Shown piece after piece: positions 6,300 to 58,200 of a DNA stretch of 64,000 nucleotides (positions are counted from its first letter, which is position 1; each line of letters begins with the position of its first letter). The notes under the pieces are model-generated. The model was not told the origin of the DNA and ran no database searches. It worked only from the letters and a program-made list of their open reading frames with translations. The stretch is from Candidatus Magasanikiibacteriota bacterium (GTDB lineage Bacteria; Patescibacteriota; Patescibacteriia; Magasanikbacterales; GWA2-37-8), in NCBI GenBank assembly GCA_963840935.1, contig CAWJAS010000001.1, positions 128,875 through 192,874 of the forward strand. The letters are read 5' to 3'. A program made the translations under genes and the position numbers.

Positions 6300-6337
6300 T
6301 GGTTAAAAATTATAGTTTTGGTGTATAATTATTAAAT

Positions 6338-7232: not shown

Positions 7233-7808
7233 TTAGTAATTTTCCGTCCAAACTTCAAAGTAAGCTTGAGGATGAAGGCATGACGGGCATTTTTCTAACG
7301 CTTTGTCTCCCTCATGCAAATAACCGCAATTTCGGCATTTCCAAATTATTTTATTATCTTTTACAAATACTTTTCCGCTTTCCAAATTTTCGTAAAGTTT
7401 CAAATAACGGGCCTCATGAGCTTTTTCAACCTTGGCGATATTTGTAAAAGCGTCGGCCACTTCTTTAAATCCTTCTTCTTCGGCAATTTTTGCGAATTCA
7501 GGATAAAGTTTTGTCCATTCTTCGTTTTCTCCTTCTGCCGCGGCTTTCAGGTTTTCCATGGTGGTGCCGATTTTACCGGCTGGGTACATGGCGGTAATTT
7601 CTACCATACCTCCCTCCAAAAATTTAAAAAATCTTTTGGCGTGCTCCTTTTCATTAAGAGCGGTTTCAGTGAATATGGCGCTCATTTGCTCAAGACCTTC
7701 TTTTTTTGCGACGCTGGCAAAGTAATCATAGCGCATTCTCGCCTGCGATTCGCCGGCAAAAGCTTTCAACAAGTTTTGCTCGGTTTTGGTGCCTTTTAGT
7801 GTAGCCAT
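7233..7808 (-). CDS. Rubrerythrin (ferritin-like diiron domain plus C-terminal rubredoxin-like CxxC...CxxC)
   Basis: [22 protein letters not shown]...[17 protein letters not shown]-terminal [20 protein letters not shown]. Confidence 0.9.
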
Positions 7809-7818
7809 AAAAAATTAA

Positions 7819-8307
7819 TTATTTAATATTATCTATTTTGTTTGTTTTGATAAAAGAAAACCAGTCTTTTCTGTCGATGAAAACTTCTCCAAGTATGGCG
7901 AATGGCAGAGTGACTAAAGTGACGATTAAAACCGTATTTATAGTAAAAATTTCGCCGGTAAGAATACTGATGGCAATTAAGTCTTCAACTACGCCCATTA
8001 CCATCCCAAAAATCATAAATTCCAAAAAAATTTCAAGATGCTTAATATATTTATTTTTACTAATTTTTGGAAGTAGATGTGTCCGATCGACAATTATTTC
8101 CCCGATTATTGCGAAAGGAATGGCAACTAAAATGGCGACGTAAACGGCTCGGGCATTGATGGTATAATCGGTCGCATAATAAATGGCGATCAAATCTTCA
8201 ATTACGCTTATAGCAATGCCAAAAATTAAGAAACCCAAAAAAATTTTTAATGATTTTTTGAGCGCCATTTTTAATTTAACCCTTTTAATTTTCAAAAAAA
8301 TACACAC
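7819..8307 (-). CDS. Small membrane protein made of two tandem homologous 2-TM halves
   Basis: First half IFLGFLIFGIAISVIEDLIAIYYATDYTINA...PFAIIGEIIVDR. Second half IFLEFMIFGMVMGVVEDLIAISILTGEIFTINT...PFAILGEVFIDR. Confidence 0.5.
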   Translation of the reverse strand: MCIFLKIKRVKLKMALKKSLKIFLGFLIFGIAISVIEDLIAIYYATDYTINARAVYVAILVAIPFAIIGEIIVDRTHLLPKISKNKYIKHLEIFLEFMIFGMVMGVVEDLIAISILTGEIFTINTVLIVTLVTLPFAILGEVFIDRKDWFSFIKTNKIDNIK

Positions 8308-8377: not shown

Positions 8378-9523
8378 TTATTTTTTAATATATATTCTCC
8401 CATCTCCTTTATCTACGGTAAATGAATGGTGTTTGAGTCCGGTTGTGATGTCTTCCATTTCTTCTTCAAAATTCACAATGACGTTCGCATAAGGAGCGCT
8501 CACAACAATGCCTTTTTCGAATTCTCTAAAATAAGCATTGTTTTTTTGATAATATTTGCCTTTGGGGTCGCCCAAGTCGGCGTCATATTCCGGGAACCAC
8601 CATGCCTGCCCATGGTCGCGGGGTCCAAAATCATAAGTAAAATAAGTATTATCGTTAAGCAGACTCAAAGTCAAACCAAGCCTCATTTTCTTTAGATCTT
8701 TTTGGCCGGTGTCGTCGGTGTCAACGGCATAAATAATAAAATGACTGTCGTCAGATGCTTTTAAACCGTCATCAAAATTTGCTTTTAATTGATTACCCAA
8801 TAAATTTTCCATCAAATAACCGTCAAAATATTCTTTGAACTCATCAATGTCATAAATATCTTTGCCGGCGTTGAAAACAACTAATTTATTATTGGTATTG
8901 AGCTGTTTTATTTTTGCAAAAATATTTTTTGTCGTGTCTAGCCATTCGTCATTACTGATTGATTCGGGACACCACCATTGTTTTTCCGTAATCATATCGA
9001 CAATAATTCCATCGTGTTGCGGTTGTTTTAGAACGTTGTCGTAGAATGAAACTATAAGCTCAGTCCATTTTTTATTTCTTAAGTCCATCGCATAAATTTC
9101 TTCATGCCCCCATTTGTCAGAAGCCCATCCAAACGCGCATCGTTCACCGTTAGGCTTGTGTAAATACATGTCTTCCGTTATTTCAATTGGTTTTTTTTTA
9201 TCATAATTTGCAACAGTCGTAAGAAATGACATCCAATCTTTATTATCCCATGTCCAATTTACAGATAATCCGGCCAAAAGTTTAGCTTCAGGATTGGTTG
9301 TTTTAATTTCATCCGCCTCTTCTTGCGTGAACCATCCGGACATAACAAGCGAATATGGTTTTTTGCTCGATATTATTTCCTCTTTTTTTGCTAACCAACT
9401 GGCAATTTTGGGGAAGTCAGCTTTTTTTGCCTCTGGCGATTGAGTTTGTTCTTGTTCGCATCCACATAAAAAAAATACTCCAATAATCGTCCATGTTAAA
9501 AATATTTTTTTTATTTTGGTCAT
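8378..9523 (-). CDS. Putative lipoprotein, unknown function
   Basis: Signal peptide with lipobox-like FLCGC. Trp/Asp-rich body. No confident family call. Confidence 0.5.
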   Translation of the reverse strand: MTKIKKIFLTWTIIGVFFLCGCEQEQTQSPEAKKADFPKIASWLAKKEEIISSKKPYSLVMSGWFTQEEADEIKTTNPEAKLLAGLSVNWTWDNKDWMSFLTTVANYDKKKPIEITEDMYLHKPNGERCAFGWASDKWGHEEIYAMDLRNKKWTELIVSFYDNVLKQPQHDGIIVDMITEKQWWCPESISNDEWLDTTKNIFAKIKQLNTNNKLVVFNAGKDIYDIDEFKEYFDGYLMENLLGNQLKANFDDGLKASDDSHFIIYAVDTDDTGQKDLKKMRLGLTLSLLNDNTYFTYDFGPRDHGQAWWFPEYDADLGDPKGKYYQKNNAYFREFEKGIVVSAPYANVIVNFEEEMEDITTGLKHHSFTVDKGDGRIYIKK

Positions 9524-9598: not shown

Positions 9599-10069
9599 TT
9601 ATATTTTTTCGGGTTTGGTAAGCACATATTTTTCTTTTTGGTAATCGTTTTCGTATCTTGCATTACTTACTTTTTGTATGCCGGGTATTTTTTTAACGGC
9701 TTTAAGTGAGGGTGTATTATCTAAATTGATTGTGAATATGACAGATGGCAAATTCAGGGTATCTATTATGGCGTGGGTACATTTAGCCGAGAGCCCTTGC
9801 CCTCTGTATTCCGGTCTGATGACATAGTGAATGATATTTTTATCATCCTCGGTATCATAGACGCCGACAATTCCAATTTTTTCCCCATCTTCTGCGCATG
9901 CCGTAAAATAGCGTTGATTCGTGCAGTTTTCTTGCCCGAGTGCTATCCAGCCGCCTTCTCCTTCCAGCGATTTGAAATAATCCATATCAAAGTCATCCAG
10001 CTTGATATTGTCGATTTTATTTGCTGTTTCTCGTCGTATTCCATGATTGTGCCTATGTGTTTCAGACAT
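9599..10069 (-). CDS. GNAT family N-acetyltransferase (cassette-borne)
   Basis: VIRPEYRGQGLSAKCTHAIIDTL acetyl-CoA binding-like segment. Confidence 0.6.
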   Translation of the reverse strand: MSETHRHNHGIRRETANKIDNIKLDDFDMDYFKSLEGEGGWIALGQENCTNQRYFTACAEDGEKIGIVGVYDTEDDKNIIHYVIRPEYRGQGLSAKCTHAIIDTLNLPSVIFTINLDNTPSLKAVKKIPGIQKVSNARYENDYQKEKYVLTKPEKI

Positions 10070-10465: not shown

Positions 10466-10552
10466 CAATGGGCGCGCTTATCCAATCGTTTCGCCCGGGC
10501 ACGAACTTTATGCTCGGGCGGGATGTTGGATAATCGTTGTTCGGCGATGTCG
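10466..10552. repeat. attC-like imperfect palindromic cassette-boundary repeat, family member 1
   Basis: acaATGGGCGCGCTTATCCAATCGTTTCGCCCGGGCACGAACTTTATGCTCGGGCGGGATGTTGGATAATCGTTGTTCGGCGATGT. Shares ends and GC-rich inner hairpin with copies at 15284-15348, 15790-15880 and 11649-11762. Confidence 0.7.
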
Positions 10553-10945: not shown

Positions 10946-11240
10946 ACCAATCCTCCTTTTTTGATTTCATGAATCCAATTCCCTAAAAGTATTTTTTTAA
11001 AGAGCAATGTTTTTGATAGTGTATCCCGGCATGCAAAGTTCGCTTTGTAGATTTATTGACTATTGTTTGGACACCCGAATACTATTTTAGCTGGTTTTCG
11101 TTAAAATTGACACTTAATTAAGAAAAGCGAGTTTAGGGAAAAGGCGAGCCGAGCCTTTTCCCGGATATTAGGCGTTATGCGAAGGTGGGCGCACCGTCCT
11201 CGTTGCGTTTTCTCTCATCTTATTTTTTGCGGTCGTGGAC

Positions 11241-13341: not shown

Positions 13342-13639
13342 ATAATTATTGAGGTTATTTTTTATTATGTCGCCGAATGTGTCCGAGTGTGCGAAGTTGG
13401 CTTTTCGGATTTATTGATTACTATTTTAGCTGGTTTTCGCTTAAATTACCACCAAACAAAGAAAGGCGAATTTGGGAAAAAGTTGAGCCGAGCAATTTTC
13501 CTTTTATCCCTTGTTATATGACCCGAACGGAATGAAATGGAGTGAGAGCGCATCGTGGCGCGACTGGAAGGAGCGAATTTTGCCAAACAAATAATTACCT
13601 TATTATTAGAGCTCTTTTGAAATTTTTCGGTGGGTGGGT

Positions 13640-15191: not shown

Positions 15192-15283
15192 CTTTGACGG
15201 AAAACTTATAAAAAAACAAATTTTCGTCCTCGTTCAACGCACCAGAGCCTGAAATTATTACAAAGATAAAAATTTATTTCACA

Positions 15284-15348
15284 TAATGGGTCGCGGTTAT
15301 CCCATCGTCCCGCCCGGGCACGAACCTCATATTCGGTGTTGTACGATG
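15284..15348. repeat. attC-like cassette-boundary repeat, deletion variant lacking the right inner arm
   Basis: cataATGGGTCGCGGTTATCCCATCGTCCCGCCCGGGCACGAACCTCATATTCGG|TGTTGTACGATGT. Ends at the stop of the 15349-15762 gene. Confidence 0.7.
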
Positions 15349-15762: not shown

Positions 15763-15789
15763 AAAAGATTTGAAAAAAATTATTTAATT

Positions 15790-15955
15790 TCGTACAATGG
15801 GTCGCGGTTATCCCATCGTCCCGCCCGGGCACGAACCTCATGTTCGGGCGGGATGTGGGATAACCGCTGTTATGCGATGTCGCGCGAGCAACTCGCAGAA
15901 CAGCGGGCACCGCGACCCATTATGCAAAATCGCTCACGCGATTTTGCATAATGTT
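15790..15955. repeat. Full-length attC-like palindrome plus additional nested hairpins; gene-less cassette-like segment
   Basis: cgtacaATGGGTCGCGGTTATCCCATCGTCCCGCCCGGGCACGAACCTCATGTTCGGGCGGGATGTGGGATAACCGCTGTTATGCGATGT. Then GCGCGAGcaaCTCGC, an inverted copy CCGCGACCCATT, and a perfect hairpin ATGCAAAATCGCtcacGCGATTTTGCAT. Confidence 0.7.
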
Positions 15956-16315: not shown

Positions 16316-16753
16316 TCACTCCACGACGGTCGTTTGACCGCGGCCAAACTTGCCATGGTTCCAGCCCGCACCGTTGATGTCAGTCACGGAGTGAACGTGT
16401 ATGGAGAGCAATTGGTCGAAGGCTTGGTCTGTATCGGGGTTCCCCGTGCGGTACTCGATCCACATGGGCTGGCCGACCGGCACATCATGAAAGGTCTCTG
16501 GAATATTGCCGTAACACCCTTGTCCGAAGGAATACTGAGCGACAGTGCCATCCGGCTTCTCCATGAGAAAGGTGTAACGCGACGGTTCGTGCATCAGGAC
16601 GCGAGAAACACCATCCATGCGCTTGGTCTCGGTCCAATCTATTGCACCAAGGGTCCGGTAGACGAAGGCCATGAGACCTAAGGACACAACCAGGAGAATG
16701 GAGACGGACAGGATGATCAAAGGAACATGAAACTTTTCCCTAATACGCTTCAT
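16316..16753 (-). CDS. Hypothetical N-terminally membrane-anchored protein; visibly GC-rich relative to flanks
   Basis: N-terminal TM segment. Codons are G/C-ending. Two consecutive hairpins downstream at ~16228-16262. Confidence 0.5.
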   Translation of the reverse strand: MKRIREKFHVPLIILSVSILLVVSLGLMAFVYRTLGAIDWTETKRMDGVSRVLMHEPSRYTFLMEKPDGTVAQYSFGQGCYGNIPETFHDVPVGQPMWIEYRTGNPDTDQAFDQLLSIHVHSVTDINGAGWNHGKFGRGQTTVVE

Positions 16754-18311: not shown

Positions 18312-18430
18312 ATGGGCGTGGTTGGATTCCCGCTTTCGCGAGAATGACAAGACGATAATTATTGTTGACAAAAAACTTTCTATAAGATTAAATAGGTTCA
18401 ACAAACCGTTCTTTTAACCAGGAGAAAAAA

Positions 18431-38576: not shown

Positions 38577-39662
38577 CTACTCGCCGTTCGCGGCGATGGC
38601 GGCTTCGACCTCCTCGGCCGAAACCACCGACTCCTGGCGACCGACGAGGCGGCGCGTGCGCTTGCCGCTATTCACGTGGTCGAGGAGCAGGGTGTAGAGG
38701 ATCTTGTGCGCCGTACCGCCCGCGCTGGCCAGGTTGCGTACCTGCGGGTCGTTGATCGGGAATTGGGCGATCTTGCGCGCCAGATCCCTTTCGATGTAGA
38801 GGCGCTTGTCCCGCCAGAAGGTGGTGTGGCGCGAGAGCAGGAGCGCCAGGCACATCAGGAAGGTGAGGCGCAGGTGCGTCGCGCCCTCTTTGAAGGTGAC
38901 GACCCTGATGCCCCAGGCCTTGTCGACCAGGTCGAAGAAGGTCCTGATGTTCTCGCGCAGGATGTTGCGCCCGACGCGGTTGTGGATCACTTCGATGCCA
39001 CGACCGAGTTCCCGCCAGCCGTTGCTGAGACCGGGACCGACATGCGAGTGCAGGGCGCCGATGACCTTGGCGAAGGACACGGCGCTGATCAGCTGCTCGC
39101 GCGTCTGGCGCTGGCACCAGGATACGCGGTTGACGAGCACGAAGTCCGGGTCGAAGAGCGTCAGGTTGTAGATCGTCTCGATGGCTGGGATGTCCGCCCG
39201 CATGTTGCGCAGGAGGATGTTCGAGTTGACCTTGGTCCGGTCGGCGTTGAGGATGCGGAAGCGCTCGCGCTCCCACTCCTCGTTGGAGTTGAAGTGCACC
39301 GTGGCTCCGAGCCGGGGTTTGGCGTCCTCGTAGCGGCGCATCATCTCGCGGGCCGCGGTTACCCGTTGGAGCCCGTCGATGATGTAGACGTCGTTCGGCA
39401 GGACGAAGACGCCCGGCTCGCGCTCGCGGAAGTTCCCTCCCCGGGCCCCGAGATCGATGTCGGGAATGGGGTCGCCCTTGACCATCGCGTCGATAATCTC
39501 GTTGATGGTCTGAATGGGGAGAACCTCGCGCTGGTACTCGGCCTGCTTGAACAGACCGAAGGAGTCCGGATCGATCACCCCGCGTAGGATGATCGTGCCT
39601 CCGGACACCTCGTCCAGTGCTCCGTGGTACAGCTTCACACAGTCCCTGTCCTTGTTGCCCAT
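38577..39662 (-). CDS. ParB/sulfiredoxin-fold DGQHR/DndB-like (DUF262-like) domain protein, GC-rich foreign gene
   Basis: VYIIDGLQRVTAARE core resembling the DGQHR/DGQQR motif of DndB/DUF262 ParB-like nuclease domains. ~360 aa as in DndB. Start taken at MGNKDRD with RBS aaaggagcccaacATG. The plus-strand ORF 38532-39587 is the antisense shadow. Confidence 0.5.
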   Translation of the reverse strand: MGNKDRDCVKLYHGALDEVSGGTIILRGVIDPDSFGLFKQAEYQREVLPIQTINEIIDAMVKGDPIPDIDLGARGGNFREREPGVFVLPNDVYIIDGLQRVTAAREMMRRYEDAKPRLGATVHFNSNEEWERERFRILNADRTKVNSNILLRNMRADIPAIETIYNLTLFDPDFVLVNRVSWCQRQTREQLISAVSFAKVIGALHSHVGPGLSNGWRELGRGIEVIHNRVGRNILRENIRTFFDLVDKAWGIRVVTFKEGATHLRLTFLMCLALLLSRHTTFWRDKRLYIERDLARKIAQFPINDPQVRNLASAGGTAHKILYTLLLDHVNSGKRTRRLVGRQESVVSAEEVEAAIAANGE

Positions 39663-46270: not shown

Positions 46271-47497
46271 TTATTTATTTATGTATTCCGCGTATCCGTC
46301 TTCCAAAATCGCTTTGCGTGCCTCGCGCATAAGGTTCAGCATAAAGTGAATGTTGTGGATTGTTGCCAGGCGTTGACCGGTTAATTCTTCCGCGTTAAAT
46401 AAATGATGAATATAGCTTCGGGAATAATTTTTGCACGTTGGACAAGAACAATTTTTTTCAATCGGGCCCGCGTCTTTGGCAAATTTGGCGTTGGTGATAT
46501 TAATTCTTCCTTCTTTGCCAGTAACATAAAGCATGCCATGGCGGGCGAGTCGAGTTGGCGCCACGCAGTCAAACATATCCGCGCCCATTCCCACGACTTT
46601 TAATAAATCTTTTGGCGAAAGCCCCACTCCCATTGTGTAGCGGGGATTTTCTTTTGGCAAAATCGGCGCGAGCCAGCCCATTATTTCTGCGGTCGCTTCC
46701 ATATTATAGCCGATTGATTCACCACCGATGGCAATGCCGTCAAAATCAAGAGAGGCAATAAAGCGGGCTGATTCCTCGCGCAGGTCTTTGTGGCCCGCGC
46801 CTTGGATGATACCAAAAAGAAATTGGTTGTGCGGTTTGTCATCCCGAGCGTTAGCGAAGGATCTGTCACTAGCGCCAAAAGATTCTTCACTACTCCGCTT
46901 AACAGCGGGTCCGCTCAGAATGACATTTTGAAGTTTTTTGTGTTCCAAAAGACATCTCTCGGCCCAGCGGTGAGTGCGTTCCATTGCCTCTTTTGCATAT
47001 TCGCGCGGTGCCGTATCCGGAGTGCATTCGTCAAAAGCCATTATGATATCCGCGCCGAGTTTGTGTTGAATTTGGATGGCTGATTCCGGAGTAAAACGAT
47101 GAGTTGAACCATCCAAATGAGATTTGAAAGTGGCGCCGTCCTCATCAATTTGAATAAGTCCGCCTTGTCCGCGCGCTTCTTTTTGCAATCCGAAACTAAA
47201 AACCTGAAATCCGCCAGAATCGGTTAGAATCGGTTTGTCCCAATTCATAAATTTATGCAGTCCGCCTATTTCGGCGATTAAATCTTCGCCCGGGCGCAAA
47301 TGCAGGTGATAGGTATTGCCAAGTATTATTTGCGCTCCCAAATTATTCAAATCGGTTTGGTCCAAAGTTTTTACGGTTGCCTGAGTTCCGACCGGCATAA
47401 AACAAGGCGTTTCAATGTCGCCGTGGTCGGTGTGCATAATGCCGGCTCGCGCGCCGGTTTTTTTGTCTTCGTGGATTAGCTCAAAAAATGTTGGCAT
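46271..47497 (-). CDS. tgt: Queuine tRNA-ribosyltransferase
   Basis: ETPCFMPVGTQATVK, LTDSGGFQVFSF, zinc site CSCPTCKNYSRSYIHHL. Confidence 0.9.
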   Translation of the reverse strand: MPTFFELIHEDKKTGARAGIMHTDHGDIETPCFMPVGTQATVKTLDQTDLNNLGAQIILGNTYHLHLRPGEDLIAEIGGLHKFMNWDKPILTDSGGFQVFSFGLQKEARGQGGLIQIDEDGATFKSHLDGSTHRFTPESAIQIQHKLGADIIMAFDECTPDTAPREYAKEAMERTHRWAERCLLEHKKLQNVILSGPAVKRSSEESFGASDRSFANARDDKPHNQFLFGIIQGAGHKDLREESARFIASLDFDGIAIGGESIGYNMEATAEIMGWLAPILPKENPRYTMGVGLSPKDLLKVVGMGADMFDCVAPTRLARHGMLYVTGKEGRINITNAKFAKDAGPIEKNCSCPTCKNYSRSYIHHLFNAEELTGQRLATIHNIHFMLNLMREARKAILEDGYAEYINK

Positions 47498-47588
47498 GGT
47501 ATTGATTATTTACTCTTTAGCATCATATATATCACATTTTGACCCGTTAATCAATATTTGATAGGATAGTGGTGCTAATAAATATTTT

Positions 47589-48218
47589 ATGAGTGAAAAA
47601 TTTAACCCGATTATTATTGAAGGCGAAAAGGAAAAAGAATATCCTTTTGTTATTAATGAGCAAGGAGAACTCAGGATTCCCGGGTTCGGCGATATTAATG
47701 AGCCATACAACGCCGACGCGCATGAAGTTGATGATACGGGAGTGAGCAGAGCAGAACGTTTTCTTGATGTCATGAAAGATGAAAATGGAAAATACGTTAA
47801 AGCGCGATATAAAAATGAAAAAGAATTTAAAGGAAGAATGATTGAGCAAGCCAATAAAGGCGCCCAGGTGACAAAAGAAGTCCACAAAAAAATTGTTAGG
47901 CGATTAACTGGGATGCGGGAAGAAGCACCAAAAGTAAAAGATGCCAGGTCATTTGAAAATGTTTTATCCGATTATTTTGATTCAGACCCATGGTTTAGGG
48001 GTATGATTCTTGGTTGGGATGTGAAGACCATGAAATCAAAAACAACTGAGCCATCATATAAATTGTCGGTAATTTTTGAGGACAACTTGTATAAACAAGG
48101 CAAAAGAAAAGTACATTTTACCGGCACGTATGCGGAAATAGTGGATAAATTAGAGAAAAAAATTAATGAATATGAAGCGCCATTAAGATTGGTTCAGGAA
48201 GAAGAGGAAGCGGTATGA
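47589..48218 (+). CDS. Hypothetical protein
   Basis: Stop overlaps the helicase start by 4 nt. Confidence 0.5.
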   Translation: MSEKFNPIIIEGEKEKEYPFVINEQGELRIPGFGDINEPYNADAHEVDDTGVSRAERFLDVMKDENGKYVKARYKNEKEFKGRMIEQANKGAQVTKEVHKKIVRRLTGMREEAPKVKDARSFENVLSDYFDSDPWFRGMILGWDVKTMKSKTTEPSYKLSVIFEDNLYKQGKRKVHFTGTYAEIVDKLEKKINEYEAPLRLVQEEEEAV

Positions 48219-50296
48219 TTGATTTTAAAAATGAACTTAATGATGAACAGTTGGCCGTTGTCCTTAAAGGCGACGGCCCTTGTTTAGTTCTTGCTGGCGC
48301 CGGTTCGGGCAAGACGCGCACGATTACTTATCGAGTGGCGTTTTTGCTTGAGCGGGGGGTTAGCCCGGAAAATATTTTGCTCGTCACTTTTACCAATAAA
48401 GCGGCCGGGGAGATGATTAATCGGGTTCAAGAAATAACCGGTATGAAACAGAAATTACCCTGGGCCGGGACTTTTCACAGTATTGCCAATAAAATTTTGC
48501 GCGCGCATGCTTTGGCAATCGGCTATAAACCGAATTTTACAATTCTCGACACTGACGACAGTGAATCGCTTGTCAAAATTTGCCTAAAAAAAATCGCTCC
48601 TGAGACAAATGGCGATAAATTTCCTTCGGCCAGAGTGATAAAAAATATAATCAGTTTTGCCAGAAACGCCGAAACAACAATTGAAGATGTTTTGGACATG
48701 AAATATCCGAGCTGGTTTTGCTATTCCGATGAAATAAAACAAATCGCCGAAGAATATGAAAAGAAAAAGCGAGAGGCCAATGCCATGGATTTTGATGATT
48801 TGCTGACAAATTTTTTGGTTTTATTAAACCAGCCGGAAATCGCGCAAAAATATTCCCGTCAATTCAAATACATTTTAGTCGATGAGTACCAAGACACAAA
48901 TCGCATTCAATCAAACATTGTAAAAAAATTAGCCGAGATTCATAAAAATCTTTTGGTGGTGGGCGATGACGCGCAAAGTATTTATTCTTTCCGCGGGGCG
49001 GACATTGAAAATATTTTGAATTTTGAGCGTTATTTTCCATCGGCGAAAGTTTTTAAACTGGAAACCAATTATCGTTCCAGTCAAGAAATTTTGTCTTTGG
49101 CCAACAATGTTATTGAGAACAATGTAAAACAATACCAAAAAAATTTGCGCACGGTTTTTGAGTCCGGCGTAAAACCGGAACTCCGCCCACAAATGGATCA
49201 ATCGGCCGAAGCGGAGTTTGTCAGGCAAAAAATCAGTGAGGCCTTGGAATCGGGAATTCCGCCAAAAGAAATTGCCGTGCTTTTTCGCGCCTCGCACCAT
49301 TCACAGCAATTGGAAATGACGCTTGCCAAAGCCGGAATCGCCTATGACTATCGGGGTGGTTTACGGTTTTTTGAGCGAGCGCACATCAAAGATGTGCTTG
49401 CCTATTTGCGTTTGATGACAAATTTGGCGGATACTACTGCTTGGATGCGCGTGCTTTTGAAAGAAGAGGGAATTGGCACAGTTGGGGCGGAGAGAATTAT
49501 CGAGGCGGTTAGACAACATGTCATCCTGACCCGCCAGTTGGCGGGGAAGGATCTTTCAATTTTAGAACAAAAAGATTCTTCGGTCGCTATGCTTCCTCAG
49601 AATGACATTAAAAATATTTTAGGCGAGCGGGCGAAAGTCGGTTGGAATAATTTTGTCCGTATTTGGGAAGAGATGCTCAATGTGGGAATTGGCAATCCTT
49701 CGGAGTTGGTCAAGGCGATTTTAAAAACAGGTTACAGCGATTATTTGGAGGCCGAATATATTGACAGCAGAGAGCGGACGGCTGATGTGGGACAACTCGC
49801 CGTGTTCGCCGAAAAGTTTGATGATCTGAATGAATTTTTATCTGAAGCTGGACTGAATGAAGATTATGGCCAAAAAAATCAAAAAAATAAATCCAGTGAA
49901 GAAAAAATTATTCTTTCAACCATTCATCAGGCCAAAGGTTTGGAATGGAATCATGTTTTTATAATTAATCTTTCAAGCGCCGGTTTTCCCAATGGCCGGG
50001 CGCTCGGCGAGCGGGGCGGACTTGAAGAAGAACGCCGTTTGTTTTATGTGGCACTTACCCGAGCCAAACGAAATTTATTTTTGACGTATCCTTTGTCGGG
50101 CGGGGGATTTGGCGACATGACAAGCGGGCCGTCCATGTTTTTGGAGGAAATCGATCCGGACTTACTCAAAGATTATTCACTCTTGCCCGAACGGGGAAGT
50201 TTGGTTTTGGATGATGATGAAATAACTTATGTTTCTGAAGACGAGCCAATAAAAATAACACCCGGATTTTTGCTCCGGGATGTTGATGATTTGTAA
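48215..50296 (+). CDS. UvrD/PcrA/Rep-family ATP-dependent DNA helicase
   Basis: LVLAGAGSGKTRTITYRVAFLL, VTFTNKAAGEM, VDEYQDTN, helicase motifs to the C-terminus. Confidence 0.9.
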   Translation: MIDFKNELNDEQLAVVLKGDGPCLVLAGAGSGKTRTITYRVAFLLERGVSPENILLVTFTNKAAGEMINRVQEITGMKQKLPWAGTFHSIANKILRAHALAIGYKPNFTILDTDDSESLVKICLKKIAPETNGDKFPSARVIKNIISFARNAETTIEDVLDMKYPSWFCYSDEIKQIAEEYEKKKREANAMDFDDLLTNFLVLLNQPEIAQKYSRQFKYILVDEYQDTNRIQSNIVKKLAEIHKNLLVVGDDAQSIYSFRGADIENILNFERYFPSAKVFKLETNYRSSQEILSLANNVIENNVKQYQKNLRTVFESGVKPELRPQMDQSAEAEFVRQKISEALESGIPPKEIAVLFRASHHSQQLEMTLAKAGIAYDYRGGLRFFERAHIKDVLAYLRLMTNLADTTAWMRVLLKEEGIGTVGAERIIEAVRQHVILTRQLAGKDLSILEQKDSSVAMLPQNDIKNILGERAKVGWNNFVRIWEEMLNVGIGNPSELVKAILKTGYSDYLEAEYIDSRERTADVGQLAVFAEKFDDLNEFLSEAGLNEDYGQKNQKNKSSEEKIILSTIHQAKGLEWNHVFIINLSSAGFPNGRALGERGGLEEERRLFYVALTRAKRNLFLTYPLSGGGFGDMTSGPSMFLEEIDPDLLKDYSLLPERGSLVLDDDEITYVSEDEPIKITPGFLLRDVDDL

Positions 50297-50297
50297 T
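50250..50297. repeat. Left copy of a 47-bp direct repeat (the last 47 bp of the uvrD-like ORF)
   Basis: ATAAAAATAACACCCGGATTTTTGCTCCGGGATGTTGATGATTTGTAA. Second copy at 51320-51366 differs at 2 positions. Confidence 0.85.
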
Positions 50298-50593
50298 TAC
50301 CCTGTCATTCCGATCGGATCTTTGTTGGCAGATTTCGGCTTCGTCTCGCTATGCGGGATTTCGCTGAGAAGGGCAGGTCAAAAGCTTAAAAAACGGGCTT
50401 TTTATTTTTATGATTTTGGCTAATTTTAGATAATAAATACTCTTGACAAAACCGCCAAAATGTACTATAGAATATTGGTGATTGCGATGGAAAGCTCTTT
50501 TTAGGAAGTCAAGAGAAAAAACAAAAACGGTAAGCCTTGGGTCTCGGCATAATGTCGGAACAAGAGGCGCGCCAAAGCGAAGGAGATAGAATC

Positions 50594-51235
50594 ATGAGTC
50601 GGAAAGACAAGAAGGAATGGACGCTGGAGACACTGCTCTCGGTGGTCGGGTTCTTGTTCGAACTGTTGCGCGTGGTCGTCAACGCTCTGCGTGCCCGCAA
50701 TGGTACGGTGGACGACCTGCGTCGCCTGATCAGGGAGCCGAAGCTCGTCGATGATGTCTTTGACCTTATCGTCGGCGCGAAGAAACTCATCGGCTTCCAG
50801 GTCACCTACGATCAAGCCAAGGGATTGACGGAACTCATCAGGCGCGCCCTCGGTCCAAAAAACGTTAATAACTTCAATCACGACATGATGCCGTCGCGGT
50901 TCCCGCTCAAGGGGAGGAATGTCCGGACGGTTAACGTCCGGGTCGAACCTTTCCTTTCCGGTGAGACAGGCGAAGAGGCCGCGAAGCGCCTGACCGCCAC
51001 CGGCCACACCCTGGCCAACACCGGCGACTTGGTCGGCTTCCTCCATGAACATCCTAAGGAGGTGGAAAATTGGAGCTGGGTCATTTCTTTGAGCGGTGAC
51101 TCCCGTTGGAAGGACCCGAACGGCTATATCCTCGTGCCGTGCGCCCGCGTGAATGGTGCGTATCGCTTCTTTCGCCTTGACGACTTCGATGAAATATTCG
51201 GCTTCGACCGTGGCGTCCTCGTCCTTTGTGAGTAG
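50594..51235 (+). CDS. GC-rich hypothetical protein A (paralog family with B and C)
   Basis: RBS gaaggagatagaatcATG. G/C-rich third positions. C-terminal block RVNGAYRFFRLDDFDEIFGFDRGVLV. Confidence 0.55.
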   Translation: MSRKDKKEWTLETLLSVVGFLFELLRVVVNALRARNGTVDDLRRLIREPKLVDDVFDLIVGAKKLIGFQVTYDQAKGLTELIRRALGPKNVNNFNHDMMPSRFPLKGRNVRTVNVRVEPFLSGETGEEAAKRLTATGHTLANTGDLVGFLHEHPKEVENWSWVISLSGDSRWKDPNGYILVPCARVNGAYRFFRLDDFDEIFGFDRGVLVLCE

Positions 51236-51287
51236 ATAGTCTTGGTCCTGCCAAAGGCGGGCAGGTCTAGTTATTTAATGTTCATTC

Positions 51288-51320
51288 GGCCCGACATAAA
51301 ATGTGTCGGGCTTTTTTTAT
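51288..51320 (+). terminator. Rho-independent terminator
   Basis: GGCCCGACAtaaaaTGTGTCGGGCTTTTTTT. Confidence 0.75.
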
Positions 51321-51366
51321 AAAAATAACACCCGGATTTTTACTCCGGGATGTTGATGATTTGTGA
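51320..51366. repeat. Right copy of the 47-bp direct repeat
   Basis: ATAAAAATAACACCCGGATTTTTACTCCGGGATGTTGATGATTTGTGA. Confidence 0.85.
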
Positions 51367-51368
51367 AG

Positions 51369-51749
51369 CTATCCAATTATTCTATAGACTTGGCTCAAAT
51401 GCTGGTCAAAATTGTTGGGCAAGTTTGCTTGTGTTTTTGCGTCCCAAACTTTTAATAAAAATTGGTCCATATTCATCGGTTCTTTTTCTGCACCAAACCT
51501 GTTTATCAGTTCGTCGATTTTTCTTGGTTTTACGTCGGTCAGAATCAAAAAGTATTCGGTTGATTTTTTGCCGTCTATTTTAAAAAATTGGACATGATTT
51601 CCAAACATCTCCGCTTCTTCGGGGGTGGTGTTTTCCGCAATCAGGTCGTGCCAAGATTTGTAAATATTTTCCACGGACGGCAAAATTTCACCGGTTCTTT
51701 CTTGACCTTCGGAATCAATATATGTAAATGATGGGCTTTCTGAAGTCAT
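51369..51749 (-). CDS. Hypothetical protein (AT-rich, host-like)
   Basis: Convergent with the helicase. Its stop abuts the right repeat copy, whose reverse complement forms a hairpin plus T-run. Confidence 0.5.
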   Translation of the reverse strand: MTSESPSFTYIDSEGQERTGEILPSVENIYKSWHDLIAENTTPEEAEMFGNHVQFFKIDGKKSTEYFLILTDVKPRKIDELINRFGAEKEPMNMDQFLLKVWDAKTQANLPNNFDQHLSQVYRIIG

Positions 51750-51950
51750 ATGCGATTATTGTAAAATAATCGCTGAATTTTGTAAATATTAATTCCGTCG
51801 TTCACGAGCGACTGGATTGACAAAACAACAAAAAAATGTAATATTTTGTTTGACTGTTCATTTTAAAATCCAAAAAATCCCGCCAATTCGGCGGGTTCCT
51901 GGCCCGGGATTAGGGCATGGAGGCGGGCGATAACAAGCCCGAGGAGAGCA

Positions 51951-52562
51951 ATGTCGAAACCGTTGGAGGAAGTGAAGAAACTGACCATTGGCCAGCTGGC
52001 CGCGCTCGTGCACGCCATCGGCGGGCTTGTCGCGGTCAAGGCAATTCTTCGTGACAAGGGTCTGGCCAAACGGGTGGCCGAGTTCATCTGTAATGACGAG
52101 AAGGGAATCGTTAAAGTTGTCGGCATGTTCACGGCATTCGTGGATTACGCCAACCCGTCGTACCAAGAGCTCAAGTCGGCCTTCGATTGGGTCGATGACT
52201 GGTATGATCGGGCGATGTTCAAGACAATCGACATCTGTAAATCGGTTAGTCGTGAGCCCTGTGTAGTGGGGTTCGTCTACGTCCATATGGACCGCACCGC
52301 TTCCAGTAATGAGGTTTACGCCACGATGGAGACACGTGGATTGCGTCCGGCACTATACGAGGAACTCCTGGCGTTCGCCAAGGCCTACCCTGACGAGCAG
52401 AGGAAGTTTCATATTATCGCTCTTGGATCTTTCTGTGTGGGTGTGAGCGGTGGTCGCTACGTGGCGTACCTCAGCGATGTTGGCTATGGTCGTCGCCTGC
52501 GCCTGGATTTTTTTGAGCACGACTGGTTTGACAATTGCCGTTTTCTCGCTGTCAGCAAGTAA
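51951..52562 (+). CDS. GC-rich hypothetical protein B (paralog family)
   Basis: RBS ggaggagagcaATG. C-terminal block SDVGYGRRLRLDFFEHDWFDNCRFLAV. Confidence 0.55.
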   Translation: MSKPLEEVKKLTIGQLAALVHAIGGLVAVKAILRDKGLAKRVAEFICNDEKGIVKVVGMFTAFVDYANPSYQELKSAFDWVDDWYDRAMFKTIDICKSVSREPCVVGFVYVHMDRTASSNEVYATMETRGLRPALYEELLAFAKAYPDEQRKFHIIALGSFCVGVSGGRYVAYLSDVGYGRRLRLDFFEHDWFDNCRFLAVSK

Positions 52563-52600
52563 CGGTCATTGGCAACTTGGCTACTTGGTTCTTTCGTTTA

Positions 52601-52650
52601 CTTTTGGGCCCTTGGTACTTTGGTACCTTGGGCCCTTTTTTATTTTAAGT
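52601..52650 (+). terminator. Terminator hairpin GGGCCCTTGGTACtttGGTACCTTGGGCCC plus T-run; repeated at 53940-53990
   Basis: Same sequence follows gene C (gggtccttggtactttggtatcttgggccctttttt). Confidence 0.7.
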
Positions 52651-52729
52651 TATCTCTAAATATTAATTGCAAATAAAAAAGGACCCACTTTACCCCGGGT
52701 CCAATAGGGTCTGTGCCTTTTTGGAACAC

Positions 52730-52830
52730 TGTTGGTCGCGAGATGCGATGCTGGTTTGTGTTCGCATGCGACACATTTTTGGTCGCCACGACATTTGGTC
52801 GCAGTGCGACAACACGTTGTTCCTTAGGCG
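52730..52830. repeat. Cluster of 3-4 direct iteron-like repeats TTGGTCGC-N-CGACA
   Basis: ttggtcgcgagatgcgatg / tgttcgcatgcgacaca / ttggtcgccacgaca / ttggtcgcagtgcgacaaca. Confidence 0.55.
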
Positions 52831-53034
52831 GTCCTTCGCACGCCGGTTTGGTTTCGCGCTAGGTCTGCCGGCTCATCATGACGTGCCTGCCTCCTTCTCT
52901 GTATTGGTTAGAGGTTTTTGGAATCTGAATAAAATGATAACATATTTTTTTGCAGATTGACAAGAGTTTCAAAATGTAATATGTTATTTTGTTAAATAGC
53001 GTTCTTTTTTATATCTCGGTTTTCTTTGGGCCAA

Positions 53035-53100
53035 TATCATTGTCATTCCCGCGAAGGCGGGAATCTGAGAAACGTGGATCCCCGATCAGGTCGGGGATGA
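53035..53100. repeat. Inverted pair of TGTCAT(T/C)CCCG boxes, each with its own hairpin; related box TGTCATTCCGATCGG at 50302-50316
   Basis: TGTCATTCCCGCGAAGGCGGGAATC ... GATCCCCGATCAGGTCGGGGATGACA. Confidence 0.55.
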
Positions 53101-53195
53101 CAGTTGTTGATCAAAAGAAGACCGGGATACAAAACCGGCATCCTTTCGGCCAGTTTGGTCGGAAGTATTTCCCACTTTGGGAAAGGAGAACGCAA

Positions 53196-53906
53196 ATGAA
53201 CAGAAAAGTGTCGTTCAATGCCATTGCCCGTTTTATGGTGGAGCTTTCGGACGAGGAACAGCGGGCGATAGTGGAGAATCCCGGGCTCGTTCGGTTTTTT
53301 TTGGCTGATTTGGCCCGCGAGAAGGAGGATAACACCTTCTTCACCCACATCGCCGACAAGGACGCCCCGGCGCATCTCATAGACACGGTCGCCAAGTGGC
53401 GCAAGCTCGCGAGCGACATGGGCTACACCGGTCCGGTGCTCTGGCTGGTCAAAGCCGGCTTCACCCTGAAGAAGCATGCCCCGCTCGCTGGTCCCTGCTA
53501 CGAACAGTTCAAGTACCTGCAGGACTGGATCTTTCAGAACTACGAACCTACGGTCGACTCTACGGTGTTCTTCGTCCCTCGCATCATCGCGACGGGGAAG
53601 GACGCCGAGGAGCAGAAGCAGGTTCTCTCCAAGCTTCGCGCGAAGTACAAACTGTCGGCAAACCACTGCGACTCGTTCGGTTCGGTCGCACTCATCAGCG
53701 GTCTCATACTCGCGCACTTCAAGCGTACGGGCGAGCGCGCCCCTCTCAACGACGAGTGGGTGCGCACCAACACCTTCGACTCGGTCGGCGACCGGCTCTA
53801 CCTCGGCGGCTTCAACGAGTATGGGCTCAGCTGCGGCCGCCACTGGAGTGTCATCAGCCGTGGCCGACTCGGGGCTTTCCCGCTGGGGATCGAGTCGCTC
53901 GTCTAG
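53196..53906 (+). CDS. GC-rich hypothetical protein C (paralog family)
   Basis: RBS gaaaggagaacgcaaATG. C-terminal block DSVGDRLYLGGFNEYGLSCGRHWSV. Minus-strand ORF 53043-54056 is its antisense shadow. Confidence 0.55.
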   Translation: MNRKVSFNAIARFMVELSDEEQRAIVENPGLVRFFLADLAREKEDNTFFTHIADKDAPAHLIDTVAKWRKLASDMGYTGPVLWLVKAGFTLKKHAPLAGPCYEQFKYLQDWIFQNYEPTVDSTVFFVPRIIATGKDAEEQKQVLSKLRAKYKLSANHCDSFGSVALISGLILAHFKRTGERAPLNDEWVRTNTFDSVGDRLYLGGFNEYGLSCGRHWSVISRGRLGAFPLGIESLV

Positions 53907-53939
53907 GCCGATTTGCTCTTTCATCATCTTTTGCCTGTC

Positions 53940-53990
53940 GGCAGGCAAGCTTGGGTCCTTGGTACTTTGGTATCTTGGGCCCTTTTTTAT
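53940..53990 (+). terminator. Second copy of the GGTACTTTGGTA-type terminator hairpin
   Basis: GGGTCCTTGGTACTTTGGTATCTTGGGCCCTTTTTTATT. Confidence 0.7.
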
Positions 53991-54134
53991 TCCCTTGACA
54001 AACTCCGCCTCATCATATATCCTATTCACGAACGTTAAAACTTTGCCTTGGCCCATCTAACCAAGGCAAAGAGTAAACCTTTAGCAAAAATCGTGGCTGA
54101 TTTTAACAAAGGTCAGCTTTTTTATTTAAAAATT

Positions 54135-54563
54135 ATGCCAACAATTAACCAAGTGCTTCGGAAAGGACGCAAAGACAAGGTCACCAAGTCAAAGACTCCG
54201 GCTTTGCAGTTCATGACCGACAACCTGCACCGCAAGAAAACCGTGCTCGCCAAGGGTTCGGCTTTCAAACGCGGAGTGTGCACCAAGGTGTACACTACCA
54301 CTCCAAAGAAACCGAACTCGGCTCTTCGCAAAGTCGCCAAAGTCCGTTTGAGTAACGGCATGGAAGTAATCGCCTATATTCCGGGCGAAGGACACAACCT
54401 TCAAGAACACTCCATCGTGCTTTTGCGTGGTGGTCGTGTGAAAGATTTGCCGGGCGTGCGCTATCACATTGTGCGCGGAGTTTATGATACTCAAGGAATT
54501 GAATCTCGCCGACGCGGTCGAAGCGTCTACGGCACCAAGCGTCCGAAAGCGAAGAAAGCGTAA
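54135..54563 (+). CDS. rpsL: 30S ribosomal protein S12
   Basis: [43 protein letters not shown]. Confidence 0.95.
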
Positions 54564-54584
54564 TGATACATAACATATAATACT

Positions 54585-55061
54585 ATGCGTGGAAAAAAAG
54601 CAGTAAAGCGCCTTGTAATGCCTGACGCAAAATACGGCAACGCGCTTTTGGGAAAATTTATAAATTATTTGATGGTTGGCGGAAAAAAGTCCACAGCCCA
54701 AAAAATCGTTTATGGCGCTTTGGAAAAAGCATCCGCTGAATCAAAAAAAGACGCCATAAAATTATTTGAAGAGGCGATTAGAACTGTCGCGCCTCAAGTT
54801 GAGGTTCGCTCAAAAAGAGTCGGCGGAGCAAATTATCAAGTGCCGTTGCCGGTTAGGGGTGAACGCCAAAACGCTTTGGCTTTTCGCTGGATTATTGACG
54901 CGGCCAGAGCCAAAAAAGGCCAGCCGATGCTTGATAGACTCGCGACCGTTCTTAATGAATCGGCGCAAGGTTTGGGAGACGCCATCAAAAAACGTGATGA
55001 CGTTCACAGAATGGCCGAAGCCAACAAGGCCTTCGCTCATTTTGCGCGCTTCGCCAAATAA
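54585..55061 (+). CDS. rpsG: 30S ribosomal protein S7
   Basis: KRVGGANYQVPLPVRGERQNALAFRWII. Confidence 0.95.
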   Translation: MRGKKAVKRLVMPDAKYGNALLGKFINYLMVGGKKSTAQKIVYGALEKASAESKKDAIKLFEEAIRTVAPQVEVRSKRVGGANYQVPLPVRGERQNALAFRWIIDAARAKKGQPMLDRLATVLNESAQGLGDAIKKRDDVHRMAEANKAFAHFARFAK

Positions 55062-55085
55062 ATTCAAAAATTATAATTTTAATTT

Positions 55086-57161
55086 ATGCCTCGTGAATAT
55101 ACATTAGAAAAAACACGAAATATCGGCATCATGGCTCATATCGATGCCGGGAAAACAACAATTTCCGAGCGTGTTTTGTTTTACACCGGTAAAAAACATA
55201 AGATCGGCGAAGTGCATGAAGGCGCGGCTGAAATGGATTGGATGGAACAAGAAAAGGAACGCGGTATCACCATTACTTCCGCCGCCACCACTTGTTTTTG
55301 GAAAAGCCATCGCATTAACTTGATTGACACTCCAGGACACGTGGATTTTACCGTGGAAGTGGAGCGCTCGCTCCGCGTGCTTGATGGCGCGGTCGCTGTT
55401 TTTGACGGTTCGCAGGGTGTTGAACCGCAATCAGAAACCGTTTGGCATCAGGCCTCAAAATATCATGTTCCCCGAATCGCTTTTGTAAATAAAATGGATA
55501 AGATGGGCGCGGATTTTTATATGAGTTTGGATTCCATTCGCGAACGCTTGTCAGAGGAAGCATATGCCATTGAATTGCCGATTGGCGCCGAGGGAACTTT
55601 TAGCGGAGTGATTGATTTGATTGAAGAAAAGGCCTATAAGTTTGAAGGAAAAAATGGAGAAATAATGACAGAAATTCCCATCCCTGATGATATGACGGAA
55701 AAGGTAAAAGAATATCGCGCCAAATTAATGGAAAAAATCGCTGAAGCGAATGATGAGTCAATGAATAAATATTTGAACGGTGAAACTTTTTCTCCGGAAG
55801 AAGCAAAAAAATTGATTCGTGAAATGGCTTTGGCTAACAGATTAAACCCGGTAATGTGCGGTTCGGCTTTGGCAAATATTGGCATCCAATTGATGCTTGA
55901 CGCGGTCATCGCCTATTTGCCGGCTCCGACCGATTTGCCTCCGATTGAAGGAACCGACATGGATAGCGGAGAAAAAATAACTCGTCAGGCGACTGATGAA
56001 GAACATTTTTCCGCCTTGGCTTTTAAAGTGGCCACCGACCCGTTTGTCGGTAAATTAATTTTCTTCCGAGTTTATTCCGGTTCGGTAAGCGCCGGTTCAT
56101 ACATATATAATTCTTCAAACGGTGAAAAAGAACGCATCGGGCGAATTGTTCGTTTGCATGCCAATCACCGAGAAGACGTGACCGATGTTTATTCCGGAGA
56201 GATTGCCGCCGCCATCGGGCTCAAAGCCACGGTGACAGGGGACACTCTTTGTGATGAGAATCATCCTATAGTTTTGGAAAAAATTATTTTCCCGGAACCG
56301 GTTATTTCGGTCGCTATTGAACCAAAAACCAAAGTTGACCAAGAAAAAATCGGCATGGCCATGCAAAAATTGGCCGAAGAAGACCCGACTTTCAAAGTCC
56401 ACACCGATGAAGAAACTTTACAGACGATTATTGCCGGCATGGGTGAATTGCACTTGGATATTTTGGTTGACAGAATGAAGCGCGAATTCAAAGTAGAGGC
56501 CAATGTTGGCGCTCCGCAGGTGGCCTACAAAGAAACTGTTCGCAATTCCGCGGAAGCCGAAGGCAAATACATCAAGCAATCGGGCGGACGCGGACAATAT
56601 GGTCATTGCTATTTGCGAGTAGAACCGCAAGAGCCGGGCAAGAGTTTTGAATTTATTGATGAAATTAAAGGCGGTGTAATTCCGCGTGAATATATTCCGG
56701 CGATTGAAAAGGGTGTTAAGGAATCTTTGACTCGAGGTATTCAGGCCGGTTATCCGGTGGTTGATGTTAAAGTGACTTGTTTTGACGGTTCATATCACGA
56801 AGTTGACTCTTCGGAAGCGGCCTTTAAAATGGCCGGTTCAATGGCCTTCCAAGACGCTTGCAGAAAAGCCAATCCGGTAATTTTGGAACCGGTTATGAAA
56901 GTGGAAGTGGTGACACCGGAAAGTTTTATGGGCGATGTGATTGGCGACTTGAACTCCAAGCGCGGGCAGATTGAAGAAATGACAGACCGCGGTCCGATGA
57001 AAGTGGTCAAAGCCAAAGTACCGCTTGCCTCAATGTTTGGTTATGTCACTTCTCTGCGCAACATGAGTCAGGGCAGGGCAAACTCCACCATGGAATTCAG
57101 CCATTATGCCGAAGTTCCGAATAATGTGGCTCAGCAGATTATTGAAGGAAAGAAAAAATAA
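55086..57161 (+). CDS. fusA: Elongation factor G
   Basis: [27 protein letters not shown], full EF-G domain series. Confidence 0.97.
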
Positions 57162-58182: not shown

Positions 58183-58200
58183 CAATACCCATTTGGCTAA
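58183..58200. promoter_or_regulatory. Perfect 18-bp palindrome TTGGCTAAAATTAGCCAA upstream of purF; candidate operator
   Basis: Related CTAAAATTAGCCAAAAA 17-mer recurs at 60412-60428 upstream of the tuf promoter. TTGGCTAATTTTAG is at ~50418. Confidence 0.4.

Follow-up and report, generated by a model that had tools for sequence, protein, structure and literature searches.

In a 64-kb stretch of DNA from a Candidatus Magasanikiibacteriota bacterium (contig CAWJAS010000001.1, positions 128,875 to 192,874; here called the window), three genes, which we name A, B, and C, lie in a region flanked by tgt, a helicase gene, rpsL, rpsG, and fusA. An earlier reading of the DNA letters made without database searches (the sequence-only reading) had described three GC-rich paralogues of unknown function here, and the three open reading frames (ORFs) are indeed present, all on the plus strand (Table 1). 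Their GC-richness was upheld on measurement, with an overall GC of 0.54-0.60 vs a window mean of 0.41, a GC at third codon positions (GC3) of 0.66-0.77 vs ~0.40 in the host, and a third-position A content of 0.05-0.09 vs 0.21-0.37 in host genes. Searches of Pfam, PHROGs, NCBIfam, and PADLOC returned zero matches for A, B, or C. The label of unknown function can now be replaced because the linkage of template repeat (TR), variable region (VR), and reverse transcriptase (RT) seen in relatives identifies all three families as variable proteins of diversity-generating retroelements (DGRs), and we conclude that A, B, and C are very probably DGR variable-protein (target) genes of a Patescibacteria genome, that is, of the candidate phyla radiation (CPR).

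Table 1. Genes A, B, and C, their predicted variable regions, and the elements that surround them (positions are those of the window)
Feature	Position	Strand	Description
Direct repeat, copy 1	50249-50294	+	last 46 nt of UvrD-type helicase gene; left flank of A; 98% identical to 51319-51364
Spacer between helicase stop and cassette A	50297-50388	.	inverted-repeat ends; no other copy in the window; absent at the L002 empty site
Cassette A upstream module and promoter	50389-50473	+	TTGACA at 50443; box TTGACAAAACCGCCAAAATGTACTATAGAAT
Cassette A 5′ leader	50478-50593	+	~116 nt, start inferred from the -10; ribosome-binding site GAAGGAG
Gene A	50594-51235	+	213 aa; ~60-aa N-terminal helical/hydrophobic module and predicted A-type lectin-fold domain
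Predicted VR of A	51104-51232	+	aligned to L007 VR and TR; columns hypervariable in the family
Cassette A hairpin and terminator	51247-51318	+	hairpin 51247-51265; intrinsic terminator 51288-51312 and T-run
Direct repeat, copy 2	51319-51364	+	right flank of A; ancestral context: TGA, 2 nt, stop of convergent 126-aa ORF
12-nt direct repeat TAAATATTAATT	51783-51794 and 52657-52668	+	left and right flanks of cassette B
Cassette B promoter and leader	51817-51950	+	TTGACA-17-AATATT with TG; ~99-nt structured leader
Gene B	51951-52562	+	203 aa; variable N-terminal helices and predicted B-type C-type-lectin-fold domain
Predicted VR of B	52428-52553	+	residues ~160-201; mapped from six homologue TR/VR pairs; hypervariable columns
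3′ module of B	52563-52644	+	8-nt periodic TTGG repeats, TTCTTTCGTT, hairpin/terminator GGGCCCTTGGTAC..GTACCTTGGGCCC and T-run
Cassette C promoter and leader	52957-53195	+	TTGACA-17-TATGTT; ~204-nt leader, palindromic repeat element at 53040-53105
Gene C	53196-53906	+	236 aa; predicted C-type-lectin-fold DGR variable protein, C-type family
Predicted VR of C	53772-53892	+	aligned to L001 VRs and TR; hypervariable columns
3′ module of C	53929-53991	+	hairpin TTGCCTG-TCGG-CAGGCAA (53929-53946), 8-nt TTGG repeats, terminator

The identification comes from relatives, whose loci carry L numbers in this text and whose proteins we call A-type, B-type, or C-type after the window gene concerned (the last being a family name, distinct from the C-type-lectin fold). 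For the C-type family, the 121-nt 3′ ends of two homologues in L001, a locus of a Patescibacteria metagenome-assembled genome (MAG), match a TR that adjoins bAvd and an RVT_1 reverse transcriptase, and 15/16 and 17/18 of the mismatches in the two targets fall on TR adenines. For the A-type family, the homologue P0112 in L007 is followed by a TR, bAvd, and an RT, and 19 of the 21 mismatches between its VR (8811-8940) and the TR (9326-9455) are at TR adenines. A metagenome scan for the B-type family gave 61 loci, 18 of them with Avd and/or RT (12 with both), mostly 0.5-1.5 kb downstream of the target gene, and in six B-type TR/VR pairs of 122-126 nt, 115/116 mismatches are on TR adenines. Over all nine pairs, 166 of 171 mismatches are located at adenines of the TR. 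Such adenine-restricted mismatch between TR and VR is the defining signature of a DGR, and this context in the relatives settles the identity of the three families, all of which are DGR variable proteins.

The structural evidence agrees with this identification and also shows how far the three genes are related to each other. Pairwise BLASTP among A, B, and C gave no significant similarity, but comparison of profiles built from homologues with hhalign identified A and B as remote homologues (Prob 95.7%, E 9e-9, ~197 columns), while profile comparison of C with A and B gave Prob 0.4% and 8.9% and no detectable sequence kinship. For B and C, AlphaFold (AF2) gave confident models (pLDDT 91.7 and 85.1), whose predicted fold is the C-type-lectin one known from TvpA, Mtd, and other variable proteins of DGRs. 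The paralogy that the sequence-only reading assumed therefore stands, remotely, for A and B and falls for C, which has only the C-type-lectin fold in common with them; likewise, the C-terminal block that it saw in all three proteins is real as the VR scaffold of that fold but is not a conserved sequence. One mark of a DGR variable protein is a VR borne on a C-type-lectin (or Ig-like) scaffold that tolerates variation, and a predicted scaffold of the C-type-lectin kind was found here. Identity to TvpA (Treponema denticola variable protein 1, 2y3c) and Mtd (Bordetella phage BPP-1, 1yu0) is 11-14% only, and the window proteins differ from both in being much smaller (203-236 aa), in having no lipoprotein signal and no phage tail-fibre context, and in having another N-terminal module. 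That module contains a borderline hydrophobic helix of ~19 residues in A and B (Kyte-Doolittle 2.0 and 1.9, respectively) and none in C, so that membrane anchoring through it is possible, as judged from the protein sequences. Counted in clusters, the relatives come to 104, 27, and >137 for the three families, the 27 being the homologues of A. Those with a name are hypothetical proteins of Patescibacteria groups, except for one MAG labelled Elusimicrobiota, and most are nameless; A, B, and C are members of three Patescibacteria-only protein families, with source names mostly absent.

In alignments of the three families (A5, A6/A8, and A7), the last ~40 residues interleave fixed scaffold positions with hypervariable ones, and the hypervariable columns coincide exactly with the predicted VRs in every family. 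Variation between homologues is concentrated at the VR codons that correspond to AAC/AAT codons of the TR. Each protein is predicted to begin with a short helical module, which is followed by the C-type-lectin-fold domain, and the last ~40 codons of that domain form the VR. In a DGR, the TR RNA is copied by the reverse transcriptase with the help of Avd, with misincorporation opposite template adenines. The cDNA then replaces the VR, rewriting the ligand-binding face and keeping the scaffold. We propose that A, B, and C themselves would be diversified, or would have been until recently, by a cognate TR and RT elsewhere in the ~771-kb genome.

Several observations weigh against this proposal where the window copies are concerned. 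The defining TR/VR relation appears in the relatives and not for A, B, and C themselves. Neither RT, Avd, nor TR was found in the window by tblastn and by a custom-made scan that tolerates mismatches at adenines, which we ran over the window and over 69 fetched loci, and no cognate TR for the three VRs was found in those 69 loci, the closest candidate having at least 21 non-adenine mismatches. For the window copies, the RT and TR search covered 64 kb of the ~771-kb genome. The three VRs are dissimilar at the DNA level, and three different TRs would thus be needed. Third-position T is 0.40 in VR_B and 0.24 in VR_A compared with 0.02-0.19 in the VRs of relatives, which could reflect drift without re-templating.

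The lack of RT, Avd, and TR in the 64 kb, the three unrelated VRs, and the raised third-position T of VR_B and VR_A would also follow if A, B, and C were orphaned relics, that is, if they descended from DGR targets, had lost the cognate TR and RT for some or all of them, and now encoded lectin-fold binders of fixed sequence retained for the specificity they have at present, and we give this alternative a somewhat less than even chance. The ORFs are intact, however, the promoters are strong, and the 3′ modules are conserved, none of which favors decay. The composition of VR_C, with a third-position T of 0.10, is the same as that of the templated L001 VRs, and the raised third-position T of the other two could reflect AAT codons of an unseen TR, as occur in the L014 TR. 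A distant TR can also match a remote target, since the L001 target that lies 3.9 kb away from its TR still matches it. Remote targets are common in these families: of 13 B-type loci for which 5 kb or more was available on either side, eight show neither RT nor Avd in their flanks, a count that would suit the orphan reading too. We accordingly keep the assignment of A, B, and C as DGR target genes separate from the question of whether the window copies are currently diversified, for which we consider the chances roughly even. As a separate observation, six short B-type lectin-domain genes of 101-156 aa follow one another in tandem in L006 (9551-12916) at a period of ~610 nt; every one of them has a leader and a 3′ module, and no RT lies within that 20-kb locus.

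Each of the three genes appears from its DNA to have its own expression signals, namely a promoter, a leader, and a terminator, as the sequence-only reading had claimed. It had further taken a near-identical AT-rich box upstream of each gene for a signal of these genes. The box is near-identical at all three, and the exact 11-mer AAATGTAMTAT is found at three places in the 64 kb and no others, namely ahead of A, of B, and of C, but its architecture is generic in this host, where promoters elsewhere in the window have the same -35 and TG-extended -10 form (TTGACAAAACCCAAAAAATATGGTATAAT at 58185(-); also 42650(-)). We therefore reject the box as a cassette-specific signal; it is a host consensus -35 plus TG-extended -10 promoter. 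A promoter of the form TTGACA(A)...WWTGTnnTAnnnT also precedes targets in L001, L002, L005, L007, L009, L013, L021, L025, and others.

The leaders are related to those of other cassettes, with the promoter and leader of A (50387-50576) 75% identical to the L005 cassette (9767-9959), the B leader 89% identical to the L002 leader, and two blocks of the C leader 76-84% identical to the L001 leader, which is without the palindrome of C. Long structured 5′ untranslated regions had been described for all three genes, and folding compared with shuffled sequences bears this out for B (z -3.6) and, within the C leader, for its 5′ portion (z -6.8), the latter due largely to the inserted palindromic element at 53040-53105, but not for A (z -1.0). 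An Rfam search over the leaders and the whole window gave only one tRNA above threshold. The palindromic element of the C leader (TGTCATTCCCGCGAAGGCGGGAATC ... CCCCGATCAGGTCGGGGATGACA) has a partial copy at 18325-18350 of the window and further copies in L002, L005, L045, and L055 and at L001 10220-10282 and other places; one L001 copy falls inside the RT reading frame. Other GC-rich intergenic repeats of 49-86 nt form two families in the window (10470-10552, 15252-15336, and 15763-15882; 11020-11162 and 13378-13501), of which GGGTCGCGGTTATCCCATCGTCCCGCCCGGGCACGAAC..TTCGGGCGGGATGTGGGATAACCGC is an internally palindromic example, and they have no Rfam match at the gathering threshold.

The 3′ ends are shared among cassettes in a similar way. 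The terminator said to be common to B and C was confirmed as a 41-nt hairpin and T-run (52604-52644 in B and 53951-53991 in C) at 95% identity, and a pattern scan for the hairpin across GTDB representatives gave the L001 contig as its sole match. We considered the 41-nt repeat as a target-site duplication, which is doubtful because the same 3′ module is present on the L001 cassettes, where both C-type cassettes have 3′ modules 84-91% identical to that of B; the repeat is probably a common cassette end. The A terminator recurs on the L005 cassette, at 92.5% identity, and on L002 cassettes too. Directly after the VR and stop codon of many target genes there are NNNCTYGG repeats with an 8-nt period, as in L009 (GCACTTGG TGCCTTGG ACACTCGG), and such arrays occur in the window (52563-52644 and 53947-53991) and in L009, L014, L018, L021, L025, L026, L028, and others. 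CTYGG motifs number 1.94 per 90 nt vs 0.43 in shuffles (4.5-fold), and a spacing of 8 is dominant, with 30 of 71 intervals at that value. Behind TR copies there is instead a GC hairpin, which is different from the 3′ module after the VR.

Each gene thus forms an autonomous cassette of host-consensus promoter, leader, coding sequence, and a 3′ module of 8-nt CTYGG repeats plus hairpin terminator, and we propose that the 3′ module would work in target recognition. In phage BPP-1, efficient homing requires a hairpin/cruciform that lies 3′ of the VR (Guo et al. 2011, PMC3240598), and the BPP-1 arrangement, the initiation of mutagenic homing (IMH) element with its hairpin/cruciform, resembles the window in that a GC-rich VR end is followed by conserved structured DNA after the stop codon (51247-51265, 53929-53946, and 52606-52637). 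Unlike in BPP-1, the element in the window is an 8-nt NNNCTYGG array plus a terminator hairpin, and the likeness to BPP-1 homing is by analogy, distance and loop rules aside. By that analogy, the CTYGG array and 3′ module may serve DGR target recognition. In the literature, we found no description of a CTYGG array downstream of a VR.

The GC excess of A, B, and C had been read as a sign of foreign origin. In every host examined, it is a property of the families and not of this genome, as target genes have a GC of 0.55-0.65 in loci of 0.42-0.49 and the accompanying RT and Avd genes have 0.43-0.46. With this excess in all hosts examined and promoters of the host consensus type, foreign origin is doubtful, and it is improbable that A, B, and C are recently acquired lectin-like genes brought in as morons or an islet from a GC-rich donor or a phage. 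Such a transfer would account for the high GC3, for the absence of A and C at the syntenic site of L002, and for insertions flanked by direct repeats. The host-like leaders, RT, and Avd speak against it, as do the homologues, whose names, where given, are those of Patescibacteria groups bar the one noted above. In addition, none of the three families has members in IMG/VR viral contigs, and no phage gene was noticed nearby; nor was an integrase or transposase noticed among the neighboring ORFs (ORF list for 47000-57000, with a Pfam scan there of A, B, C, and the 126-aa ORF).

An RT that copies mRNA could in principle leave an adenine-specific depletion, and we rejected this as the cause of the GC excess because T as well as A is depleted at third positions in A, B, and C, a pattern seen in normal high-GC codon usage, and likewise in two further genes, D and E. 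These are GC-rich single-gene modules elsewhere in the window, D at 16316-16753(-) and E at 38577-39662(-), with the same promoter type. D (145 aa, GC3 0.66) has a transmembrane helix at its N-terminus, while E (361 aa, GC 0.64, GC3 0.90) has a DGLQR motif, weak nuclease-type matches (GmrSD_N/DGQHR only), and no VR-like C-terminus. D and E do not look like DGR targets, so that strong promoters in front of GC-rich genes are not confined to the DGR cassettes.

The families also exchange parts. The N-terminal ~60 residues of A (MSRKDKKEW..LLSVVGFLFELLRVVVNALR..DDLRRL..LVD..FDLIV) are found again in 30 representative clusters, and by reading of the sequences this N-terminal module is fused to about six VR-bearing C-terminal types, B-type included; A-type lectin domains carry other N-termini as well. 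At one syntenic slot, between Polysacc_synt and SpoIID genes, the same leader and N-terminal module are joined to an A-type domain in L003 and to a C-type domain in L001. Over 300 nt, the L001 copy at this slot matches the RT-proximal target at 95% identity, which suggests gene conversion, a process that would create new remote targets. Cassettes would swap 5′ and 3′ modules by recombination, in addition to differing in position between related genomes. Shuffling of N- and C-termini resembles that of polymorphic toxins, and single-gene units with their own signals could be taken in the same way, as the sequence-only reading did when it suggested a novel cassette system of effector/immunity-like genes; if unrelated to retroelements, such a system has next to no likelihood. 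No toxin, immunity, defense, or phage family was matched, no paired immunity genes are present, and the variable part is a VR of predicted lectin fold, for which relatives show the adenine signature of DGRs, so that the TR/VR/RT linkage of all three families contradicts it. The same reading's description of mobile or diversifying single-gene modules came close to the truth, in that these are DGR target families with their own signals and differing positions, but they are of a known kind and do not constitute a novel system.

The differences in position are best seen in the relative L002, whose housekeeping proteins are 77-100% identical to those of the window and which is without A and C. There, tgt is followed in turn by a 210-aa ORF, the helicase gene, a 126-aa ORF on the minus strand, a ~250-nt minus-strand element, a B-type cassette, and rpsL. 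In the window, A lies as an insertion at the helicase stop, with 46 nt of the helicase 3′ end duplicated on its two sides, whereas L002 has a single copy of the 46-nt repeat and runs from the helicase TGA through ag to the stop of the 126-aa ORF, with no cassette between. The spacer between the helicase stop and cassette A, which the L002 site lacks, belongs to the inserted DNA. B lies between the 126-aa ORF and the ~250-nt element in the window, flanked by the two copies of a 12-nt repeat that are the only ones in 64 kb (0.09 expected). A contig from run ERR15459710 also carries gene B, with the A-like ORF, the 126-aa ORF, and B in the order seen here. C sits in the slot that a B-type cassette holds in L002, and the window B gene and the L002 B gene are 59% identical, which is consistent with non-orthologous placement. 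Cassette positions thus differ between related genomes.

The ~250-nt minus-strand element (52681-52927(-)) has a promoter (TTGTCA-18-TATCAT), a Shine-Dalgarno sequence, a 6-codon ORF (MMSRQT* in the window, MNRRQT* in L002), several GTCGC..GCGAC hairpins with CAAA after each, and a terminator, and it has no match to an Rfam family. It is 74-80% identical to L002 7892-8133, which immediately precedes the 126-aa ORF and shares its strand, while in the window cassette B separates the two. The element is probably the ancestral leader of the 126-aa ORF, leader- or attenuator-like, and not part of a cassette. In L007, a ~250-nt duplication of the upstream gene's 3′ end and terminator (6209-6454 and 7781-8059) brackets a target cassette, and the two adjacent L007 cassettes have a 71-nt promoter region in common at 94% identity. 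These features suggest that cassettes were gained through duplication, or through an insertion that left long repeats on its flanks, much like the one at the helicase end in the window.

A further-reaching proposal, which we hold to be unlikely, would make the cassettes, from promoter to terminator, mobile units that are copied to new sites and leave direct repeats of variable length (46 nt at A, 12 nt at B). The copying could go through RT-mediated, target-primed insertion, with read-through transcripts as the source, or through recombination directed by hairpins. The CTYGG array would then be a clade-specific signal that recruits the DGR machinery, and the GC excess would be a by-product.

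Paul et al. in 2017 reportedly made the first survey of DGR variable proteins in Patescibacteria/CPR. DGRs are enriched in CPR, where they have an RT clade of their own (clade 2, Roux et al. 2021), and their targets are typically without recognizable domains (PMC8144416). The A-, B-, and C-type families agree with the Patescibacteria/CPR proteins in host group, in having Avd, RT, and TR beside many members, and in a C-terminal adenine-specific VR, and A, B, and C, like the surveyed targets, have no recognizable Pfam domain or clear membrane signal. Unlike the surveyed targets, A, B, and C have neither an RT nor a TR anywhere in the 64 kb. In Treponema denticola, there are several DGR targets per genome, some far from the RT (PMC4891356), and L001 is similar in that one TR serves two targets 3.9 kb apart; the three window VRs differ from that multiple-target DGR in being unrelated and not copies of one VR. 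Integron cassettes and morons are likewise single-gene units between host genes, the latter with their own promoter and terminator. Unlike integron cassettes, however, A, B, and C have promoters, their flanking repeats copy host sequence and not attC, and no integrase-like ORF was noticed in the ORF list for 47000-57000, and unlike prophage morons, they have no phage context and no IMG/VR relatives. They also differ from polymorphic toxin/immunity cassettes in that no toxin or immunity domain was matched and the proteins are predicted to fold as lectin-type binding domains. All three genes are thus new instances of known biology. We found no description in the literature on CPR DGRs of an autonomous cassette of promoter, leader, and 3′ module, of module shuffling and in-situ domain swaps, of positional polymorphism with 12-46-nt flanking repeats, or of a family-wide GC excess.

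With this identification, three hypothetical genes and ~270 unannotated or hypothetical relatives become recognizable as DGR variable proteins of an ultra-small symbiotic bacterium. DGR targets can lie tens of kb from any reverse transcriptase, and such targets are missed by RT-anchored surveys, which state their own blindness to remote targets (PMC8144416). The three sequence families, the shuffled N-terminal module, and the conserved 3′ repeat element provide handles for study. If the cassettes are mobile or the CTYGG array is a homing signal, this would be an addition to the DGR mechanism, and the families described here could help explain the repertoires of hypervariable binding proteins in CPR bacteria.

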